DNA of 64,000 nucleotides. Origin: an uncultured Phycisphaerales bacterium. Its GTDB lineage: Bacteria; Planctomycetota; Phycisphaerae; Tepidisphaerales; Tepidisphaeraceae. How positions within the stretch are numbered: the stretch's first letter is position 1; each line of letters starts with the position of its first letter. This document shows, in pieces, positions 2,812 to 29,862 of the stretch. A program made the translations under genes and the position numbers. The notes under the pieces were generated by a model that was not told the DNA's origin, did not search any database, and worked only from the letters and a program-made list of their open reading frames with translations. Location: contig CAVWLP010000002.1 of NCBI GenBank assembly GCA_963755915.1, forward strand, positions 2,880,001-2,944,000, read 5' to 3'.

Positions 2812-5800
2812 CGCTCCCCTCCCTGCTCCTCCATCACCCGCGCCAGCATTTCCGTGCGCGATCGGCTTAAGATCGTCATAACAACCCGGCGCCGGTTCCA
2901 GCCGGCATCAGCGCCCGGAACTCGCAGCGCGGGCACGGGGTCTCCGTTCCGATACGATAGGGCCGAATGTCAATCCGTCCGCCGATGATCTCATCCGCGA
3001 TCTGTCCTATCCGCGCCTCAACATGCCGGAGCAGCGCCGCAAATTCCCCGCTGCTGGCGGCATCCGATTTATCCGGATGCCCAACTCCGCCGTCGCGCTT
3101 CAAATAAAGTTGCACGACCTGCGAGTAACCTTCCGTCAGCTCGCGATCCAACTCCCGCGCAATCCGCAAGTCGAAAATCCCCCGCGGCTTCACCTGCAGA
3201 TGAAATTCCGGCTCCTCTGGAGAAAGCGCCTCCCCAGGATCACCCGCGCGAACCGGTCGCAAAAGCTGAACGCAAAACGCCGCGCTGGGCGAGAGCTTCG
3301 CATCTTTGATCACCCCCGGCCCCAGCTTTTCCAGCACCAGCAGATTCACCAGCAACCGCAGGCAAAGCCCGTGATACACCTCGGCCGCGCTCGGCGCACT
3401 GCCCCGCATCCGGTAGTCAATCGCGCACGCCGATCCGTCTTTCAGCAGATCGACCCGATCGATTTTCCCCGCAAGCTCCACGCGATTTCCCCCCGGCGTG
3501 GCGATCTCGACCGCCGGGTTCGCATCCCCATCTCTTCCAAAACGCAAGTTCACCAGCCGCGGCCGAAACTCGCCGCGCCCGGCCGCCGCTTTCTGCGCCT
3601 CGGCCACCAGTTTCACCGTCCGCTGGACGAAATCCACCAGATACCGATTCCGCGCCTCCGAAAGCATCAGCTCTTCCCCAAGCTGATCGCGAATTTGCCC
3701 CGTCAGTCGCTCCACGGATGCCGCATCGAGGTCATTCCACGATTTCTGCGCATCGATCAGCTCCCGCACCAGCCGCTGCAAAATCTCCCGGAAAACCCGC
3801 GTTAGATCCCCACGGCCAAATTCCCGCGTCTTGCGCTCCGATAGCTTCAATCCATACCGCGCAAAGTGCTGATAAGGGCACATCCGAAACGATTCCAACT
3901 GATACGCATCCGCGCGAAGCGGCGAAGGAAACAATTCCCCCGCCCGCTTCCCATCGATCTTCGCCTCATTCCGATAGCTTAGCGCCTTCCACGCCGACCT
4001 CCGCGCAAAGTCGATCGCATCATCGCACGGCGGATGCTCCGCCAGCCATTGATACACCGGCCCCCACTCCCCATCCGCCGCCCCCGATTTCACCCAGTTG
4101 ATCAGCGACCCCACCAGTTGCCGCGGCGTCGCGATCAGTTGCAGCGGAAGACCATCCTCGCGCGGAACCGGCTTCGCCTTCCCTCCCGCTTCGAGCCAAA
4201 GCGACGATCCCTCCACTTCTCTCCCCGCTTCATCCGTAAGACTGCGCGTCAGCAGCAGCTTCTCCTTCGCGCGTCATCGCGACATACCCCAAAAAATTCT
4301 CATCGAGCAGCCGTCGCGACGAATCCGGATTCAGCTCGATCCGGTGCCTGCCCAGATTCCGCCGATCCGCATCCGTAAAAATCGAATCCTCCCCCGCCGA
4401 CCGCGGAAATTGCCCTTCCGACAACCCCAGCACAACGCACGCCTTCACCCGCGGCGTACGCGTCCGATCCACCGCCCCCACCAGCACCTGATCCACGGTA
4501 GGGGGGGTGAGCGCAAGATCGAACCCCTCCAGCGCCGAATCCAGCATCGCGGAAAAATCCTTGAGAGAAATGACCTCCGACCCAAACAAATCCACCAGCT
4601 CATCAAAAAGCGTCACCGTCTCATCCCAAACCCGCTCATGCTCGCCGGCTTCTTCCAGCCGCCCGGCCGCGGTAGCGTCATCGATCCACCGGACGATTTT
4701 GCCCCGACATTCAAATCCTTCCAGCAACCGGAACACTGCCGCCGCAAGATCGCGCACCGTTGCGTCTTTCTTTCTCACCCCCGCAACAAACGGCCCCAGC
4801 CGCTCCACCAGCCGCCGCCGAATTGCATCCATCTTCGCCGCTTCATCGATCGCGATCGGGTCGTCCTCATCCCGCCGCCGCCCCGTCCAATTTTTTTCGG
4901 TCGACCAGACGTTGTGATCGATCCCGCGCCAAAGCACATAATTCTCCAGCCCATCCGCGTCAGCCGGACTGAGGCCAACCAGCGCAGTCTTGATCACCCC
5001 CATCATCGCATCATGCGACCAGTTGGTGATCGCCACCGCCAGCGCCGCCCGAATCAGCCGCACCAGCGGATAATGAGACGCCGTGCGCCGCTCGTCCATG
5101 AAGAGTGGAATCTGATGCTCGGCAAACGAGGCCTGAAGAATGTGGTGATATTCCTCCGGGCTCCGCATCAGTACGACAATGTCCCGAAACCGCATCCCGT
5201 CGGACACAAGCTTGCGAATCCACCGCGCCGCCCCATCCACTTCCGCCTGCCGGTCGGGCGCCTCCACAAGCAGCGTGTCGACTTTTGCATCCACGCCAGA
5301 CTTGCCCAGCAGAACCGCCTCCGAGATTTTCACCCCGCCCTCGCTCAGCGCAAACCACAACTGCCGATAACCCATTTCACTTCGATAAAACAGGCTCATT
5401 TCATCCGGCAGATGATCCGGCTTCTTCAAAATCTCGCTCTCAGGGTCCATCGTGAACGTAACCGCCAATGACTTACACACCTTCCCCAGCGCCGCCACAA
5501 CCTTCCGCTCCGACCCGGTAAAATCGTAAAACGAATCCAGAAAAATTTCCGACTCCCTCACCGACTCGCAATCCCCGATCGCTTCCAGCGCCTCATCCAA
5601 TCGCCGCTTCGGATCGAGCCGATCCTGCCCCAGAAATTTCCGGTATTCCGAATAGATCAGCGCCAAATCGTGAATCTTCGCCCGCAGCGCCGTAGTCGCA
5701 GCCGACGACTCGATTTGATTTTGAATAGCATCCGCATCCTGCCCCGCCCGCTCCAATTCCCCAAGCGTCGCGTCGAGTTGAGCAGCGACCCCCGGCTTAT

Positions 5801-8856: not shown

Positions 8857-11412
8857 TCATTCCAACGTTCCGCGCGTCACCCCAAACTGGTTGAGCACCC
8901 TCAACTGCCGCCACGCCGTCCGCGGAGCCTCGATCCCCGCCAGCACCCGCGCATACCGGTCTAGCACCGGGCTAACCTCTCCCTCATCGTGTCGCAACAA
9001 TTCCACCCGAAAATGGCGCAAACCGCTCTCCAGCATCCGCGGCACAAACTCCGCCGCCGATTGCGCCGACCCGTTGTAAACCGTATTCCTGCACCCCACA
9101 TCCGCCACCAGCGGATGCGGCGTCCCCGCCCGGTCCTTCAATTCCACCTTGTGCGACTCGCAAGGCCTCCCGCAGTCGCGGTAATCCTTCCCATTCGAAA
9201 GCGTGTGCGCAAACACACAATGCTCCATGTGAAACATCGGCATATGCTGATGAATCACCACTTCAAACATCTCCACCGCGAACCGCCCCAGCATCGCCGA
9301 AAGCTGCGCCCAGTTCAGGTCATAGCTCGGCGTCATTCGCCTCACCCCATGCCGCATCAAAATCGCCGCCGTCAATTCATTCGAAACATTCAGCGAATAA
9401 TCCGCGACGAGAGGAATCTCCGGACACAGCTCCCGATAAAGACAAAGCCCCGCCAGATTGCGAATCAGAATCAGATCCGGCCCCGCCGCCGCGACGAGCT
9501 TCAGCAGCCCCTGCTCCGGCGGCTTCACGATCCGAATCGTTGCCAGCCCAATCTTCACCCCCGCATCCCGCGCCATCCGTACCGCCTCCGGATATTTGCG
9601 AATGTCCTCCAATTCGCAGTAAACCGCCGCCAGCTCAACAAGATCGGTAGGGGGCCTCCACTTCACCGCCGTCCGAAGCTGCTCCATCGTCCGCGCCAAT
9701 ACATACAACTGCGGCTTTTCCCCCATTTCCCCCTCTCCCGGTACTCTGGGAGAGGGCAGGGGTGAGGGCCTGCAATCATTTTCGAAACAAGTTGCAGTTG
9801 CCCGTCGCATTTCCTCCAGCCCATCCGCATTGATGATTCGCGCGTTCCCTTCCCTCATCCGCAAAATCTCCCCACTTGCCCGCCTCCGCAAATCGTTCAG
9901 CACACTCTTAGGAATCATCACCGCCGGAAACTCCGCCCCCGCGTCCCCATTCACAAAAACCTCCCCCAACTCCAGCGGCGTATCCCCCAGCCGCCCAAAC
10001 TGCTCCCGAAAAATCTCCCGCGTCATCGGGAATTTGATCGCACACTCAAGCTCGCGCTCCCATCCCACTTCCACCCGATTCCCCGATTCATCTCTTACCG
10101 AAATTCCCAGCGGCTTCCCCTCAATCGCAGTCACGTTCACGCAAATCGCCACCCGCCGTGCCACCCGGTCCCGGCTGAACGAATGCTCCAGCCGCTTGCG
10201 GATTTCCGGATCATCCGTCTTCCACACGATCGACCCCATCGACACCGCAGGCAGGCTTACGTCCCCGCGGTAAAACCCAATCGCAATCCGTCCGCCGCCG
10301 CCCGGCTCCGCGCTGACGATCCGCCCTCCCTGTTCATCCTGTTCCGGATGCCCCTCATCAAAGACAACCCCGTCCCCGATTTTCAGATTCGCCCCGCGCT
10401 CCAGTTGCACGAATATTCCCCGCTCCGATTTACCCACCACGCTCCCCGCCCTCACCCCCCGGCTCTTGGGAAACCGCGCGTGTACCAGCCGCTGATGATT
10501 CACCCCATCCAGAAACCCATGCGTAAACCCGCGCGAAAAGCTCTGCGCCAAATCCATCCGCTGCTGCGCGGATGGATCAAACTGCCGCGCCTCCCTCACC
10601 GCATCCACCGCCGCGCGGTACACCTGCGTCGTCGCCGCCACGTAATGCGCGCTTTTCAGCCTCCCCTCGATTTTCAAACATTTCACCCCGATCTCCGCAA
10701 GTTCCTTCACCAGGTCAAACGCCGCCAGGTCCTGCGGGCTGAGCAGATACGCCTTGTCCCCCATCTCCCGCCGATTCCCATCCACGATCAGATCGTAAGG
10801 CAGCCGGCAAGCCTGCGCACACTGCCCACGATTCGCACTCCTTTGCCCAATCGATTCGCTGGTCAAACACTGCCCGCTATACGAAACGCACAATGCCCCA
10901 TGCACGAACACTTCCACCGGAACCGCGCTTTCGGCCGCGATCTTCGCGATATCCCCGGTCGAAAGCTCCCGCGCCAGAATCACCCGCCCCACGCCCAGCG
11001 ACCGCACAAATTCCACCCCCAGCGGCTCCGTCAGCGTCATCTGCGTCGACCCATGCACCGCCAACTCCGGGCAAATCCGCTGCGCCAGCTCCGCCAACCC
11101 CAAATCCTGCACGATAATCGCATCCGCCCCGGCCGCCGCAATCGCCTCAACAAACCGCGCCGCTTCCTCCAACTCATCCGAAAAGATCAGCGTATTCATC
11201 GCAACATATCCGCGCACGTTGAGATGATGCAGAAACGTCATAATCTCCGGCAATTCCTCAACCGAAAAATTCGCCGCCCGATGCCGCGCATTAAACGCCG
11301 AAAGCCCAAAGTAAACCGCATCCGCCCCATTCGCCACCGCCGCGCGCATCGCCTCCCAGTCCCCGGCGGGGGAGAGCAACTCAGGACCGTTCATCTCTTC
11401 GGTCTTCGACAT
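8857..11412 (-). CDS. U32 family protein with DUF3656 region (RlhA-like RNA hydroxylase family)
   Basis: PELLSPAG, GADAVYFG, EVFVHGALCVSYSGQC, NRGQCAQACRLPY, KIEGRLK. Confidence 0.88.
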   Translation of the reverse strand: MSKTEEMNGPELLSPAGDWEAMRAAVANGADAVYFGLSAFNARHRAANFSVEELPEIMTFLHHLNVRGYVAMNTLIFSDELEEAARFVEAIAAAGADAIIVQDLGLAELAQRICPELAVHGSTQMTLTEPLGVEFVRSLGVGRVILARELSTGDIAKIAAESAVPVEVFVHGALCVSYSGQCLTSESIGQRSANRGQCAQACRLPYDLIVDGNRREMGDKAYLLSPQDLAAFDLVKELAEIGVKCLKIEGRLKSAHYVAATTQVYRAAVDAVREARQFDPSAQQRMDLAQSFSRGFTHGFLDGVNHQRLVHARFPKSRGVRAGSVVGKSERGIFVQLERGANLKIGDGVVFDEGHPEQDEQGGRIVSAEPGGGGRIAIGFYRGDVSLPAVSMGSIVWKTDDPEIRKRLEHSFSRDRVARRVAICVNVTAIEGKPLGISVRDESGNRVEVGWERELECAIKFPMTREIFREQFGRLGDTPLELGEVFVNGDAGAEFPAVMIPKSVLNDLRRRASGEILRMREGNARIINADGLEEMRRATATCFENDCRPSPLPSPRVPGEGEMGEKPQLYVLARTMEQLRTAVKWRPPTDLVELAAVYCELEDIRKYPEAVRMARDAGVKIGLATIRIVKPPEQGLLKLVAAAGPDLILIRNLAGLCLYRELCPEIPLVADYSLNVSNELTAAILMRHGVRRMTPSYDLNWAQLSAMLGRFAVEMFEVVIHQHMPMFHMEHCVFAHTLSNGKDYRDCGRPCESHKVELKDRAGTPHPLVADVGCRNTVYNGSAQSAAEFVPRMLESGLRHFRVELLRHDEGEVSPVLDRYARVLAGIEAPRTAWRQLRVLNQFGVTRGTLE
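9729..9770. repeat. Dispersed palindromic box repeat (CCCCTCTCCC-GGTACTCC-GGGAGAGGG...GGGTGAGGG), in-frame copy; relatives at 6757-6826, 33307-33345, 37633-37672, 55329-55371, 61160-61200, 62231-62272
   Basis: Same hairpin plus G-rich tail seen by eye at each position. Confidence 0.8.
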
Positions 11413-11635
11413 CTATTTGGCGAATGATACACCGTCACCCGCCGCCGTTCACTTTCGATCCTCACTAAATAGCAATCTGATTTTCTTGGCGTCTTGGCGG
11501 TTAAAAATCTTATAACCGCCAAGAAACTATGAAGCCGAGCCTTTCTCGGGACGTGAACGGGGTCAAAATGCCCCAAGTATGAACGAGCGTACCGCGTAGG
11601 TCGCTCAAACGTCTTTTTTGAGAAAGGACTCGGCA

Positions 11636-12679
11636 ATGCGAATTCTCGCTTTGGACCTGGGAAAGAACAAGAGCGTTTTTGTGGATTATGTCACCGGCGG
11701 TGGAGAAAGAACGTTCGGCAAGATCGGCACCAATGCCCACGAGGTGCAAAAACTACTCGAGCGGGTGCGTCCGGATCGACTGGTCATCGAGGCCGGTCCG
11801 GCGGCAGGATGGGTTTGTGATCTGGCGGAGCGGAACAATGTTCCCGTCCAGGTGGCCAATGGCAACGATGAACGCTGGCGCTGGAAGACGGTGAAGGAGA
11901 AGAGTGATCGTAAAGACGCGCTGAAGATGGCGGCGATGTCGGAGATGGATTCGCTGCCGACGGTGCACGTGCCCAAGGCATCGGTTCGGCAGTGGCGTTC
12001 ATTGATTGAATACAGACACGGCCTGGTGGATCGCCGCACGGCGCTCAAGAACTCGATCCGATCAATCTACGAGCGGCAGGGTTTGTATTTGCCCTCGGCG
12101 ACCAAGGCGTGGACGAAAGCGCGACTGGAGGAAATGAGGAAGGAAGCAGCGGCCGCATCGGTGGAAGATCTGTGGCTGTTTCAGATCGGTTGTGAGGTGG
12201 CGCAACTGGAGCACCTGGAGAAGCAGATCGAAACTGTCGAAAGCAAGCTTCAGGAGTTGGGCCAGGCCAACAAAGCGGTGAAACGATTGCAGGAGGTGCC
12301 CGGCGTTGGTCCGCGGCTGAGCGAGGCGGTGGCGGTGATCATTGATGATCCCAGGCGATTCAAGAATGCACGTCAGGTGGGATGTTACGTGGGTCTGACG
12401 CCGCGGCGCTGGCAGAGCGGCGACAGCGATCGCCAGGGGCGGATCAGCAAGGCAGGCAACGCGCTGCTGCGGGAGTTGCTGGTGGAGGTGGCGTGGCTGG
12501 GGGTTCATCGCAATACGTGGATGAAGGACGTGTACGAGAGGGTTCTACGTGACAGCGAGAAGCGCAAGAAGATCGCGATTGTTGCGGTAGCCAGGAGATT
12601 ACTGGTGAAGCTGTGGGCGATGCTGCGGGACGGAACCCGATGGAGAGAACCCCAGCGATCGCTGACGGCGGCCACTTGA
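11636..12679 (+). CDS. IS110 DEDD recombinase/transposase
   Basis: ILALDLGK, VIEAG, KSDRKDA (RuvC-like DEDD), VPGVGP, YVGLTP..QSG...GRISKAGN, AIVAVARRL. Confidence 0.93.
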   Translation: MRILALDLGKNKSVFVDYVTGGGERTFGKIGTNAHEVQKLLERVRPDRLVIEAGPAAGWVCDLAERNNVPVQVANGNDERWRWKTVKEKSDRKDALKMAAMSEMDSLPTVHVPKASVRQWRSLIEYRHGLVDRRTALKNSIRSIYERQGLYLPSATKAWTKARLEEMRKEAAAASVEDLWLFQIGCEVAQLEHLEKQIETVESKLQELGQANKAVKRLQEVPGVGPRLSEAVAVIIDDPRRFKNARQVGCYVGLTPRRWQSGDSDRQGRISKAGNALLRELLVEVAWLGVHRNTWMKDVYERVLRDSEKRKKIAIVAVARRLLVKLWAMLRDGTRWREPQRSLTAAT

Positions 12680-12985
12680 AAATCGAAAAGGCGATGACTG
12701 TCCCGACAAGTCGGTACAGGCGATGGAGTATCTCCCCTCCGGAAGACACCGTGTCAGAAAGCCGTTGTCTTCTGTGCAGGGGATTGAGTAGAGTTGAAGT
12801 GAAGTGGAATTGACGCGTTCGTGCAGGTTGAATGAGCAAGGCCAGACCCCGGTTGGCGTCTTAAGCTTCAAAGCTTGCCGCTAAGAATAGGGCTGGCCAT
12901 TTGTACAGTTGAATAGGCCCGCCGCCAGGCGAGAGCACTGAATAGAAGGCTCACCCAATCGACCGCATGAGCGATCAACGCCCCT
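12680..12985 (+). ncRNA. Putative bridge/seek RNA in the IS110 3' non-coding end (boundaries approximate)
   Basis: Stem GGCCAG/CTGGCC (12840-12898) encloses TTGGCGTCTT and GCCGCTAAGA, which match the two sides of the insertion site, separated by an AAGCT-TCAA-AGCTT hairpin. Confidence 0.7.
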
Positions 12986-13083
12986 TGACAAGGCTCGGCT
13001 CATAGAAGACGCCAAGAGCGCCAAGAAAATGCAACGGGGCGAATTCAAATCGCTCTCGCGAGGAACCACCGAACTGATTTTCC

Positions 13084-14747
13084 TTAAGTTGTCCTGGAAA
13101 TCTTCAAACCACACGCAAATTCATTGGGCGTTCGATCCGGCATCGTGACCACAAGCGCATTCTCATCCCGCGAAAACCCAACCGCCCCAACGCCCAGCAA
13201 TTCCACTCCCCCAACCTGCCACGGATAAACCCGCGACCCCGCCGCCAGCGTCTTGATCCTGATCTTCCCATCCGCCGGCCACCCCAGCGCAAACGCGTAT
13301 AGCGTCTCCCCGTTTGTGGTAAAACGAATGTCCTCGGCGGTATAAGCCCGCATCGACTTCTCGTTGAAATTCCCCGACCCTTTCACATCCGGCGGCCCCT
13401 CCCCAAAAACCGAAAATGGCCGCGACCCGAAAATCCCCTCGCTATTGGCCGGCATCCACGAAGCCAGTTCCGCCAGAACTTTCCGCTCATCCTCGTCAAT
13501 CGTCCCGTCCCCGCGCACCGGAATGTTCAGTAGCAAATTCCCATTCTTGCTCACAATATCGATAAGCATCGCGATGACGGTCTTCGCCGTCTTATATCGA
13601 TGCTGCTCAAACAGCGACCGCTGATAATGCCAGCTTCCAATGCACGTATCCGTCTGCCACGCATTCGGCAGAATGTGATCCGCACGCCCGCGCTCGATAT
13701 CCAGCACCATCGTCCCGATATGATCCGGCACCAGCCGCTTGGAAGTGAGCACCGCCTGGAGCGATCCATGCCGCGCAATATTTGAATTGTAATAGTGTGC
13801 CGCGATATCCAGCCCCGCCTGGAGCAGCGGTAGCTCCGAGTCGTCAAAATAAAGCAGATCCGGCTCATACCCATCCACCAGATCCTGGCACCGCAAAAAC
13901 CATTTGTTCGCGAAATCCGGATACCTCGCCGGCGGTTGCTCGCTCCACAACTGATCGTGGCTCTGATGCCACGCCCTCATCTCCGCGATCGAGGTGATCC
14001 CATCCGGCAGCACAAACGACGGCCCGACATACAGCTCCTGCGGGTCCATCCCCTCCCACCATTTCCCCTTCCCATCTTCCTTTCTTAGCGTATACGCGTC
14101 ATACCGAACCCCCGCCATGTCGCCCACCGGATCGTACCCATACGCCGTCTGGAACCAGTGCCACGCGTGCGCGCTGTGATTGGTCACCCCGAATTTCAAT
14201 CCCCGCTGCCGCGCCGTCGTCGCCCAAATCCCCACGATGTCGCACCGCGGTCCCACGTTCACCGAGTTCCACGCGTGAAATCTCGAGTCATAGCAATCGA
14301 AGTTGTCGTGATGGTTCGCCAGCGCCACGAAATATTTCGCCCCCGCCTTCACGTACAGATCCATCAGCGCATTGGGGTCCCAGTTCCCCGCCGACCACAG
14401 CCGGTCGATTTCCATGAACCCCACTTTCGATGGATGCCCATAGTGCGCCACGTGGTACTTGTTATGCGGATGCCCCTGGATATACATCTGCCGCGCATAC
14501 CAGTCCCCCTGTTCCGGCACGCACTGCGCCGTCCAGTGCGCCCAGATCCCAAACTTCGCATCGCGAAACCACTCCGGCATCTATATTGATGCAGCGAATC
14601 CCAGTTCGCCTCAAACGGCCCCGGCGCGATCAAGCGCGCCGCTTGCGAGGTTGCCGTCTGGCCGCGAAGTGGCTTCACGCTCGATAGATAAATCGCCGGA
14701 ACCACCCCTCCCAGCATCTTGATCATTTTCCTCCGCGAGATCTTCAT
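13084..14747 (-). CDS. GH29 alpha-L-fucosidase with Tat-like signal, frameshift near 14583
   Basis: MKISRRK N-terminus, PEWFRDAKFGIWAHW, HHDNF, LLYFD, DIVSKNGNLLLN. Confidence 0.88.
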
Positions 14748-26950: not shown

Positions 26951-27269
26951 TTCGAAACTCGCAGCTAAATTAGGGCGTCCCGCCCAACGGCTTCCAGCCA
27001 TTCTCAATCGCCGATGGGCTTCCACAAGGCGTCGCCTCCGGCTGCGGTTCGGCATTTGGCAATCGGCATTCGGCATTCTCTTCCCACTCGCAGCCCTGTT
27101 GGGCGGGCGTACCAGCCCACCGTTTTGCTTACTCACCCGCCGCTTGTGTCACGGGGCTGCGCCAAAACCAGCCAGGGCGGGGCGCTTCAAAACCGGCCAA
27201 TGTGCTGACGTATTCTATACCGCATCCGTTCTATCCGACGCAACTGTTCCTTGAGTTATTGGTCCCCGT

Positions 27270-28160
27270 TCACGCCGTCTGGCCGGCGGATACCCCCACA
27301 TCAGAAGACAACGGCGGCTCTGTCACGGTGTCTTCCGGGGGGGAGCACCCTTCATCGCCGGCGGTACTCCGCCGTCCTTTTGGATTTGTCTTTTCCGGTG
27401 TCCCGGATTGGCCTGCCGTGAGCGAAGTCGAATGGCCCCCATGCCGAAGGCGGTAGCTCTTGCCGGTGATGTTGATGATCGTGGCGTGCTGCAGGAACCG
27501 ATCCAGAATGGCCGTGGCCGCCGGCACGTCGCCGATCAGCTTGGCCCAGTCCTCCAGTGGACGGTTGCTGGTCATCATCGTCGAGCGGTTCTCGTGCCGG
27601 CGCATGACGATCTCCAGCAGGCATTCGCCGCTGCGCCGCGGAAGCTGCTTCATTCCCATGTCGTCGATGATAAGCAGATCAGGCTTGAGATACCGGGCCA
27701 GCGTCTTGTCCTGGGCTCCCAGATCCTCGTCGCCTAAAAAGTCGCGGGCCAGGTCGAAGATGGATCGGTACAGGACCACCAAGCCGCTCTTGATCGCCTG
27801 GTGTCCGATGGCCTGGGCCAAAAACGATTTGCCCACGCCGGGCGGACCCAGCAAGAGCACGTCACGTTTGTCACGAATGAACTGGCCGGCGGCCAGATCG
27901 TGAATCTGTTTGCGTTTGATGGAGGTGTTGAAGGAGAAGTCGAACTCGTCGAGGTTTTTGGTGTCGCGGAACATCGCCGCCTTGACGCGCCGGCCGATCT
28001 GCCGGCTGGATCGGACGTTCAGTTCATCCTGAAGGATCAGTTCCAAAAACTCACTGTGGTCGAGCCGATTGCCGGCCGCCTCGCTCAGGCGAACTTCAAG
28101 GCTGCTCGCCAGACCTGAAAGCCGAAGTTGCTTGAGCGTCTGCATCAACGAAGGTCTCAT
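27270..28160 (-). CDS. istB: IstB AAA+ helper ATPase
   Basis: LKQLRLSG, LDEFDFSFN, GPPGVGKS, LLIIDDMG, TSNRP...W, AILDRF. Confidence 0.93.
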   Translation of the reverse strand: MRPSLMQTLKQLRLSGLASSLEVRLSEAAGNRLDHSEFLELILQDELNVRSSRQIGRRVKAAMFRDTKNLDEFDFSFNTSIKRKQIHDLAAGQFIRDKRDVLLLGPPGVGKSFLAQAIGHQAIKSGLVVLYRSIFDLARDFLGDEDLGAQDKTLARYLKPDLLIIDDMGMKQLPRRSGECLLEIVMRRHENRSTMMTSNRPLEDWAKLIGDVPAATAILDRFLQHATIINITGKSYRLRHGGHSTSLTAGQSGTPEKTNPKGRRSTAGDEGCSPPEDTVTEPPLSSDVGVSAGQTA

Positions 28161-29862
28161 GGGGTGGACTCCCTTCGGCTCTGCTCAGGGCAGGCCTGTA
28201 AAGGTTGTGCGGCAGGCAAAGCCTCCGCTTGGGTGATTGCGTCGCGTACGAACTGTCCGTAATCGGCCAGTCCGCGGATGATTGGATGTTCCTGAACAAA
28301 CTCGAAGTGTTGTTGAACCGGTGCGCCGTTTTGGTGTTCGATGAGCTGCCGCAGGGAGCGCAGGTGATACGCGCCATGCCCCAGAGCAATCTCGCAGGCT
28401 CGTTCCACGGCCGGTCGCGGCTGCTGATTGGCCAGCGACAGCAGCCCCATCAACACGCGCACGCCTTCGATGCCGCGATGCTGAAGCATTGACTGCGCCC
28501 ACTGCGTGGCGTGCGGCCCGATGCATTCGATCCGCTGGAGAAGCCAGGTCGTTCCACGCTCGATGCCGCTGATCTTCTCCGGCAGGATATGGGCGTCTTG
28601 CGTCGAGAACCTGCCCGGCGGACGCTGCGCGTGCAGAGCGATCGCACGCATCTTCTGATCGAACAGCCGGACCGTGCGCCCGTCCCACCGCGCCCAGACC
28701 CGCTGGCCCAAAAACTCCGGCGGGACCGAATAGTACGCCCCCTTGATCTCCACGTGCCCGTCGCGGTGAACACTGCGCAACGCCTCGGTGAAAAGATCGA
28801 ATCGCACCGGCGGCAGAGCCAACAGTGCCGGCTTCTCTACCTGCTCGAAGACTTCCTTCACCTGCCGCCGCGTCGTGCCGTGGATGCGCGTGTCGGCCAC
28901 GCTCTTCTCCCACGTCAGCAGATGCGCGTTCTGATCCGAGAGCGAGGCGAATTGCCGGCCTTTGAGAGCATTGCTCTTCACATAGCCGATGCCCCGCTCG
29001 ATCTTCCCCTTGTGCCGCGGCGTGTACGGCTTGGTGGGCAGAATGGCGATTCCATAATGTTCGGCGAACGACCGGACCTTGGGACACAACTCCGCCTCGA
29101 ACCAGTCCGCCCGCGTCACCGCCGCGCGAAGATTGTCGATCACCAGCGCTGACGGCATCCCGCCGAAGTGCGTAAAGGCATTTTCCAGACAACGCAGAAA
29201 ATCATCGGTCGTCTGCCGCTCCACCGCCTCGGCGTACCCCTTGCGGCTGTGGCTCAGCACAATGCGGAAGACCCAGGTTGCTTTGCGTTTGCCGTCAGGA
29301 CCGACCAGGGCGCACCCCGGCCGAAGTCCACCTGCGCCTCGGCTCCCGGCTCGCATTCCATCCGGCGAAAGGGCGCCGGCGCGGCAGCCGAGAGCTTCTT
29401 GATGAACCGGCGCACGCTGTAATAGCTGCCGGCATAGCCGTGATCGCTGGAGATGTCTTGATAAATCCGCTGGGCCGTCAGCCCGGCTTCCAACTTCTGA
29501 ACAATGACCTCACGCCAGGGCGATGCCGTACTGACCGACCCGATGGGCGCGCCGGATAACCCGGTGGCGCGCTCTCCGAGCCGCCTGCGGCGAGCACCGT
29601 CGAGCCGCCTGCGGCGAGCACCGTCGAGCCGCCTGCGGCGAGCACCGTCGAGCCGCCTGCGGCGAGCACCGTCGAGCCGAGGGGCGCGCTGGCCGGTTTT
29701 GAATCCGATCCGGGCGCCGCAGGATCGCCGCCCGACAACCGGATGTGGCGTCCAACGGTCTCCCGGTGAACGCCGAGTTGGCGGGCGATGTTCCGATTGG
29801 ACCAGCCGCTGCGCAAGTGCCAAAATTGCTTGTACTTCCGCCATCTTGAGTTGATTGGCCAT
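28157..29862 (-). CDS. istA: IstA DDE transposase; frameshifts near 29810 and 29315
   Basis: MANQLKM, GWSNRNIARQLGVHRETV (HTH), PGAEAQVDFG, VLSHSRK, IDNLRAAV, KGKIERGIGYVK, YYSVP. Confidence 0.88.
29577..29679. repeat. 24-bp tandem repeat, about 4.3 copies, inside istA (GSTVLAAG)
   Basis: CGAGCCGCCTGCGGCGAGCACCGT repeated exactly. Confidence 0.95.

Follow-up and report, generated by a model that had tools for sequence, protein, structure and literature searches.

Within the IS110 family of insertion sequences, a guide RNA (seekRNA) has been shown experimentally for the IS1111 elements ISEc11 (together with its naturally retargeted relative ISXne4), ISPa11, ISKpn4 and ISPst6 (Siddiquee et al. 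2024, PMC11187229). As far as this account describes the group, IS1111 elements encode a transposase of 330–350 amino acids (aa) with a GL-P----S(t)G motif and have subterminal inverted repeats of 7–17 bp and a long non-coding region downstream of the gene; in their seekRNAs, the top-strand match lies 5' of the bottom-strand match, and natural re-direction between IS1111 relatives has already been reported there. For ISPpu9 of Pseudomonas putida, the part of the literature cited here describes a small-RNA gene downstream of the transposase gene (PMC12288879). Here we analyzed 64,000 nucleotides (nt) of DNA (hereafter, the window) from an uncultured Phycisphaerales bacterium (GCA_963755915.1, contig CAVWLP010000002.1, positions 2,880,001–2,944,000, forward strand; GTDB lineage Bacteria; Planctomycetota; Phycisphaerae; Tepidisphaerales; Tepidisphaeraceae), and found that positions 11525–13009 constitute a 1485-bp insertion sequence of the IS1111 group. 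We consider it very likely that an RNA from the region downstream of its transposase gene guides insertion, spelling out both the insertion site and the element's own ends. What the analysis shows is the anatomy of the element, the identical sites of all copies, the covariation of three of the four guides with DNA across relatives and the covariation of the RNA stems. The locus thus adds a well-supported case to a mechanism that was published in 2024; it does not represent a new system.

So far as the cited accounts describe them, the seekRNA elements named above and the element analyzed here have in common a DEDD transposase of 330–350 aa, the GL-P----S(t)G motif, subterminal repeats and a long downstream non-coding region, as well as two short guides that overlap in the target, with the top-strand match first, and close relatives that differ in both guides and targets. 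The present element differs from them in its host phylum (relatives were found here in Phycisphaerae and Pirellulales genomes), in its target, which is a palindrome of CGCCAAGA repeats with an AG core, and in an extra segment of approximately 150 nt, containing a hairpin like that of a host small RNA (sRNA), between the gene and the guide RNA. A further difference is that retargeting here is a shift by one repeat unit within the same repetitive extragenic palindrome (REP) and is caused by three base changes in one guide only. With IS621 and ISCro4, as described by Durrant et al. (2024, PMC11208160), the element shares an RNA of dual specificity that combines a target loop with a donor module, the logic of left and right target guides (LTG and RTG) and a left donor guide (LDG), the same core dinucleotide in both loops and a homologous C-terminal domain of the recombinase. 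However, according to the same source, the IS621 RNA is encoded in the left end, upstream of the gene, whereas the RNA considered here lies downstream and has the reverse order of guides; moreover, the donor bases here flank a hairpin in a multi-loop rather than forming a simple internal loop, and the candidate right donor guide (RDG) lacks the core. Like ISPpu9 and ISPpu10 of P. putida, as described in PMC12288879 and 10.64898/2026.03.19.712850, the element is a multi-copy IS110-family element in REPs, although its host and REP are unrelated to theirs, a distinction drawn from the published descriptions.

The element and its insertion site

The main features of the element and its surroundings are as follows.

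11525–13009, plus strand: whole insertion sequence, present in nine copies with sharp ends
11636–12679, plus strand: transposase/recombinase gene (347 aa), identified by Pfam, NCBIfam and PDB matches
11527–11543, plus strand: left subterminal inverted repeat CTATGAAGCCGAGCCTT, an inverted repeat of 12990–13005 with one indel, conserved in relatives
12990–13005, plus strand: right subterminal inverted repeat AAGGCTCGGCTCATAG, the counterpart of 11527–11543
11522–11523, plus strand: core dinucleotide AG at the left junction, with a second copy at 13007–13008
11484–11524, no strand: left part of the interrupted REP-like palindrome, comprising an arm TCTTGGCGTCTTGGCGGTT (11484–11502), a loop and AACCGCCAAGA (11514–11524)

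The window's genome contains nine full-length copies, which differ from one another at no more than 2 positions and whose similarity ends exactly at 11525 and 13009. Since AAGA stands at both junctions (11521–11524 and 13006–13009), the placement of the boundaries is ambiguous by up to 4 nt. The subterminal repeats lie 2 nt (left) and 4 nt (right) from the ends, and the non-coding region spans 330 nt downstream of the gene, compared with 111 nt upstream. The 347-aa frame is open and contains LALDLG, VIEAG, SDRKDA and GLTPRRWQSG; the last of these, at residue 253, corresponds to the GL-P----SG pattern, and its SG motif aligns with ISCro4. The acidic residues are putatively those of the DEDD catalytic tetrad. 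The protein matched PF02371 (the C-terminal domain; E = 2e-24) and PF01548 (the N-terminal DEDD/RuvC-like domain; E = 2.9e-10) in Pfam and NF033542, 'IS110 family RNA-guided transposase', in NCBIfam (217.9 bits, cut-off 140). In sequence searches against PDB, the C-terminal domain matched the transposases of IS621 and ISCro4 (8wt6, 9t56; E = 1e-16 to 3e-18) and was the only domain that aligned well to either chain; the N-terminal domain matched the ISCro4 chain weakly (5.8 bits, query residues 86–171). All IS1111-group features that were tested (protein length, motif, subterminal repeats and downstream non-coding region) were found in the element, and the assignment to IS1111 rests on these hallmarks. 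We conclude that 11525–13009 is a recently active member of this group.

Insertion is site-specific and, as is characteristic of the IS110 family, involves neither terminal inverted repeats nor a long duplication of the target. All nine copies are inserted at TAACCGCCAAGA^CGCCAAGA, and AAGA is the only sequence common to both junctions. When the flanks are joined, a palindrome arm is restored, yielding TCTTGGCGTCTTGGCGGTT-loop-AACCGCCAAGACGCCAAGA, which is a repeated element of the window's genome; the right arm continues at 13010–13029, and the same repeat flanks most copies. The genome has 21 uninterrupted sites with CCGCCAAGACGCCAAG. Separately, six 330-nt segments of the window, starting at 5281, 5446, 55606, 55771, 59401 and 59566, contain matches of at least 10 nt to the empty site, and are probably further copies of the REP-like palindrome family, which is built from CGCCAAGA octamer repeats.

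An earlier note on this stretch, made from its letters, had proposed AAGA as the core. AAGA does stand at both junctions here, but relatives share just 2 nt at a fixed place in the junction (right end CATAG-N-core, left end core-AAACTATG; AG here, and GA, CG or TG elsewhere), and the core within AAGA is therefore best read as AG. This reading agrees with the dinucleotide core given for IS621 in the cited description (PMC11208160). The donor junction would then read CATAGA-AG-AAACTATG.

Target loop and donor module of the predicted downstream RNA

The following features were assigned to the downstream non-coding region.

12834–12966, plus strand: bridge/seek RNA scaffold with target loop and donor module (120.5 bits with covariance model R1; stem covariation)
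12840–12898, plus strand: target-binding loop module closed by P1 (12840–12845/12893–12898) and P2 (12847–12849/12890–12892), from the predicted fold
12853–12862, plus strand: right target guide UUGGCGUCUU, complementary to A-AG-ACGCCAA on the top strand to the right of the crossover
12863–12876, plus strand: P3 hairpin AAGCTTCAAAGCTT between the target guides, from fold and covariation
12877–12886, plus strand: left target guide GCCGCUAAGA, which pairs with the bottom strand and is read against ACCGCCA-AG-A
12904–12910, plus strand: candidate right donor guide UACAGUU, complementary to left-end AACTATG with one C:A mismatch and one U:G wobble
12914–12940, plus strand: P4 hairpin in the donor module (93–96% pairing in helices 4 and 5, with double changes in 8/9 of their pairs)
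12942–12948, plus strand: left donor guide AUAGAAG, with the same sequence as the right end and core (13002–13008)

In the target loop, GGCCAG-A-CCC (12840–12849) pairs with GGGCTGGCC (12890–12898), leaving a one-base bulge. The enclosed TTGGCGTCTT (12853–12862) is the exact reverse complement of AAGACGCCAA (13006–13015), which comprises the last four bases of the element and six bases of the right flank. On the other side of P3, GCCGCTAAGA (12877–12886) is identical to the left flank ACCGCCAAGA (11515–11524) at 8/10 positions, or compatible at 10/10 when wobbles (rG:dT and rU:dG) are allowed. The target guides accordingly sit between P1/P2 and around P3, their pairings overlap at the core AG, and the top-strand match lies 5' of the bottom-strand match. 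The earlier note had pointed to the stem, the exact match, the hairpin, the 8/10 match and ATAGAAG at 12942–12948, all of which were confirmed. Its proposal that an intact IS110/IS1111 element encodes, in its 3' region, a guide RNA with a target loop fitting the element's own insertion site is supported, and the guides stand in the order of IS1111 seekRNAs. The two target guides are also complementary to each other (UUGGCG at 12853–12858 with CGCUAA at 12879–12884, including one G:U pair), because the two halves of the target are direct repeats of CGCCAAGA; U at 12882 makes one of these guide–guide pairs a wobble.

To evaluate the structure, we built R1 on a hand-supplied structure and fitted an alignment of 35 sequences to it. 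In the window's genome, R1 matched exactly the nine copies of the element. Across its five helices, 86.0% of cells were paired, compared with 60.1% in shuffles and 30–43% when partners were slid, and 170 cells showed double changes versus 56; in P1, all six pairs showed double changes. RNAalifold applied to a plain MAFFT alignment did not recover the outer stem, owing to a one-column shift in that alignment. A search of Rfam release 15 over 11300–13300 returned nothing relevant at E ≤ 10 and no match to a bridge-RNA family.

Among 24 distinct pairs of donor guide and right end, 15 contained a run of at least 7 nt, and the mean run was 6.4 versus 3.4 for non-cognate pairings (0/20000 permutations reached the observed sum); the variants included ATAGGAG, ATGGAAG, ATAGTGA, ATGGATG, ATAGATG and ATAGCAG. 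The window's element, whose own run is 7 nt, is outside these 24 pairs because a stricter pattern was used. The role of ATAGAAG as a donor guide, which had been offered previously as a possibility, is thus borne out. Moreover, at the core positions, target loop and donor guide are identical in 31/31 evaluable sequences (AG in 19, CG in 5, TG in 5 and GA in 2). As the donor guide follows P4, the donor bases fall in a multi-loop, a layout that Durrant et al. (2024, PMC11208160) describe for many IS1111 orthologues.

The partner of this guide, which the earlier note had not found, now has a candidate at 12904–12910. When the strand 5' of P4 was compared with the left ends, AGUU before GAAUGGG was found to be conserved in most relatives, and one relative with the left end GACGATG (L073) has CAUCUGUC at this place, which is compensatory; three others (L069, L094 and L068) are not compensated.

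A subgroup of relatives (L039, L074, L077, L082, L083, L103 and L104) has the ends CCCATGCAAGCC and CATAGT(C/T)G, with approximately 30 conserved bases outside the left subterminal repeat, and its left boundary seems to lie approximately 30 nt further out. The donor guide in this subgroup is ATAGTCG throughout (that of L082 being deleted), and the right end is ATAGTTG in L082, L083 and L103 (also in L095), a consistent C/T mismatch, but ATAGTCG in L039.

In the mechanism suggested by these features, a DEDD/serine recombinase (11636–12679) would be guided by a non-coding RNA encoded downstream, at approximately 12834–12966. A stem-closed internal loop would read the insertion site on both strands, with UUGGCGUCUU pairing with A-AG-ACGCCAA of the top strand and the two target pairings overlapping at the core AG, while a second module would read the joined ends of the element, AUAGAAG specifying the right end plus core and UACAGUU perhaps the left end. 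Insertion would thereby occur at CCGCCA-AG-ACGCCAAGA, inside the repeated host palindrome. The RNA would be made and bound by the recombinase, and the element would move through a circle whose junction, CATAGA-AG-AAACTATG, could complete a promoter.

Retargeting among relatives and alternative explanations

Relatives were gathered by protein-guided searches in a Phycisphaerales metagenome-assembled genome (MAG), a Pirellulales MAG and other genomes of the same class and phylum. Matches at E ≤ 1e-40 were obtained in 30/401 genomes of the class sample, the window's genome among them, and matches at E ≤ 1e-30 in 16/401 genomes of the phylum sample. Protein relatives abound in metagenomes: of the 8000 candidates scored, 3044 reached E ≤ 1e-20, which at the protein level does not bear out the description of the lineage as poorly sampled; the 120 listed are 60–90% identical, and none of these 120 has a name beyond 'transposase' or 'IS110 family transposase'.

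The closest relative (L031–L034; 91% protein and 90% DNA identity), whose four copies are the sole full copies in their genome, carries UUGGCGCUCU in place of UUGGCGUCUU, with three changed bases at 12859–12861. All four copies are located at GACGCCA-AG-AGCGCCAAGA, a site shifted onward by one repeat unit within the same palindrome; the other guide is unchanged, and the eight flank bases adjoining it do not differ between the two sites. In the window's genome, the first register comprises 9 occupied and 22 empty sites, and the neighbouring register 0 occupied and 19 empty sites. Similar correspondences were observed in other relatives. Between L035 and L070, the guide changes from AAUUGAAC to AGUUGAAC and the flank from GTTCAATT to GTTCAACT, a compensatory A-to-G/T-to-C change. 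A relative with five copies has the guides CUGACCCCUU and AAUUAAGA and the consensus site AATTA-AG-GGGTCAG, from which single copies deviate at one or two positions. L075 (45% protein identity) interrupts a tRNA-Met (CAT) gene, with the junction at position 44 of the 72-nt gene, which was detected only once the flanks were joined, and L071 and L100 (49% protein identity) are inserted at the same point of an integrase-core (rve) gene of another insertion sequence, with the core GA instead of AG. The loops of the relatives in the tRNA-Met gene and the integrase-core gene match those sites. The earlier note had named a conserved loop in homologues with other targets as a finding that would speak against guidance; the opposite was seen, as loops change with targets.

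We further compared guides and junctions in 15 elements with usable junctions, excluding repeated occurrences of an element, the truncated copy L081 and the above subgroup with its unset left boundary, and used 20000 permuted pairings of guides and junctions as the null. For the top-strand guide, the longest Watson–Crick run between the 88 nt before the second guide and the right junction averaged 7.13 for cognate and 4.69 for non-cognate pairs, and 0/20000 permutations reached the observed sum. For the second guide and the left junction, anchored identity averaged 5.20 for cognate and 3.08 for non-cognate pairs (0/20000 permutations). The test of whether guides covary with flanks, which the earlier note had suggested, thus revealed covariation on either side.

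Several observations weigh against guidance by this RNA. Some cognate pairs are weak: on the top strand, L067, L073 and L094 score 5 and L071, L084 and L068 score 6, and on the bottom strand, the scores are 4 for L097 and L079, 3 for L073 and L069, and 1 for L094 and L071, where the L071 value reflects a register problem in the extraction. The counts of 0/20000 overstate independence because the relatives are kin, and the alignment behind the stem-pairing statistics was fitted to R1 itself. The left target guide has two non-Watson–Crick positions against its own target, and the minimum-energy fold pairs both target guides together, so that, according to this prediction, the target loop of the free RNA would be shut by the RNA itself. 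The candidate right donor guide at 12904–12910 does not pair with the core and can be regarded only as a candidate. A scan of 11400–13100 for sigma-70-like promoters and intrinsic terminators found 0 and 0 sites, and the metatranscriptomic contigs described below give neither strand nor ends, may contain DNA and are no proof of transcription. Finally, the 10-nt target match alone is only modestly significant: when the 330-nt non-coding region was subjected to dinucleotide shuffling, an antisense match of at least 10 nt to the reconstructed empty site (28 bp) arose in 20/5000 shuffles (0.4%), and a match of this length on either strand in 75/5000 (1.5%).

These shuffle counts, which are explained by the target being a tandem repeat of CGCCAAGA, are what might be cited for the idea that the matches arose by chance in a repetitive, GC-biased context. 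However, three separate strings occur in the expected order and on the expected strand within a conserved structure, and the cognate matches exceed all 20000 permutations for both target-guide sides and for the donor guide. The comparative evidence across relatives is decisive in this regard, and chance, which we consider next to impossible, is refuted as an explanation. It could also be supposed that the tail contains a captured or decayed REP fragment, or another DNA-level feature, such that the resemblance to the site reflects descent and not reading by an RNA. TTGGCGTCTT is indeed also present in the left arm of the REP itself (11487–11496), the loop region resembles a miniature REP, and the tail did gain foreign sequence elsewhere (12719–12774). 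Against this, relatives in unrelated targets, including the tRNA-Met gene (L075), the integrase-core gene (L071) and others, keep the scaffold while their loop strings match those targets, the stems covary as in a folded strand, and the target and donor cores agree without exception. These comparative tests largely refute such a descent already, and we consider it very improbable.

A different possibility is that RNA pairing is necessary but not sufficient, and that the REP hairpin, as a cruciform or in single-stranded form, provides a second layer of recognition, as proposed for ISPpu10, for which a preprint reports a sequence–structure dual-match logic (10.64898/2026.03.19.712850). In that case, insertion could not be predicted from the guides by themselves. 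At least part of a REP is present on both sides of 8/9 insertions in the window's genome, and 4/4 copies of the 91% relative occupy members of this REP family. However, at 3/9 sites (C3:759409, C2:2523682 and C2:684589) no left (partner) arm of the palindrome is recognisable within 70 nt, a tRNA gene and a coding sequence serve as targets for relatives, and which of the two registers of a REP is used accords with the guide. We therefore regard a requirement for the hairpin as unlikely, and favor guidance by the RNA as such.

Possible expression and a host small-RNA-like module

Two further features are relevant to how the guide RNA might be produced.

12985–12990, plus strand: TTGACA, putative -35 box of a promoter that would be completed only in the excised circle
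12719–12774, plus strand: hairpin module homologous to the 3' part of a host small-RNA-like gene, outside the conserved bridge-RNA scaffold

TTGACA, followed after 17 nt by GAAACT across the joined ends (13008–13009 plus 11525–11528), is probably a circle-junction promoter. A TTGAC-like hexamer is present at a constant distance before CATAG in 11/11 aligned relatives, and junction promoters have been described for these families in a review (PMC13604230). Public RNA data overlapping the element were limited to two metatranscriptomic runs, with shares of 0.13 and 0.05. One contig (X1) is identical to 12639–12843; the other (X2), from an unrelated run, corresponds to the 91% relative's variant over 11484–11931 and 12811–13009 plus flank, so that the guide variant of that relative is found alongside its cognate flank. 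Stretches that no contig covers are uninformative.

The first 150 nt of the non-coding region are common only to the element and its 91% relative, and the hairpin at 12719–12774 is absent from a 71% relative and from more distant ones. In the window's genome, this hairpin is also present, at 84–86% identity, at the 3' end of two types of IS21-family element with approximately 30 and 10 copies. One example is located at 27302–27359 of the window (minus strand); the corresponding IS21-family element (27200–29360, minus strand) has two overlapping open reading frames (399 and 296 aa), of which the second contains a GPPGVGKS motif, and is one of approximately 30 near-identical copies in the genome, judged from the identical flanks of the shared hairpin. 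The core of the hairpin was found in 51/71 genomes of the same family (a count that includes the unpublished genome G660), mostly as a single copy. The single copies (in the window's own genome, at approximately 786150–786300 of C3) resemble a gene for a small RNA, in that they show a promoter and a 5' hairpin as well as an invariant C-rich stretch and an intrinsic terminator, and their last 55 nt are identical in ten genomes. The approximately 55-nt hairpin of the element is homologous to their invariant 3' part, made up of the C-rich stretch and the terminator stem. An Rfam search with this module yielded no family match.

These observations raise a tentative idea, to which we assign a low probability, namely that the guide RNA is made within a chimeric 3' transcript that starts with a captured seed-plus-terminator module of a host sRNA, and that unrelated mobile families have captured this module. 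If so, the module could borrow the RNA-binding or processing machinery of the host to stabilise or mature the transcripts, or could titrate that machinery, and the supply of guide RNA would be coupled to host sRNA biology.

The analysis leaves the picture of how such elements work unchanged. What it contributes is a clean decoding of an IS1111-type guide RNA in Planctomycetota-type genomes and, with it, another compact pair of recombinase and guide for testing. It also captures natural retargeting at unusual resolution, in which three guide bases shift insertion by one repeat unit of 8–9 bp while the other guide remains constant. These results are useful for annotating REP-associated insertion sequences, and for deriving rules on the share of each guide in the choice of register.

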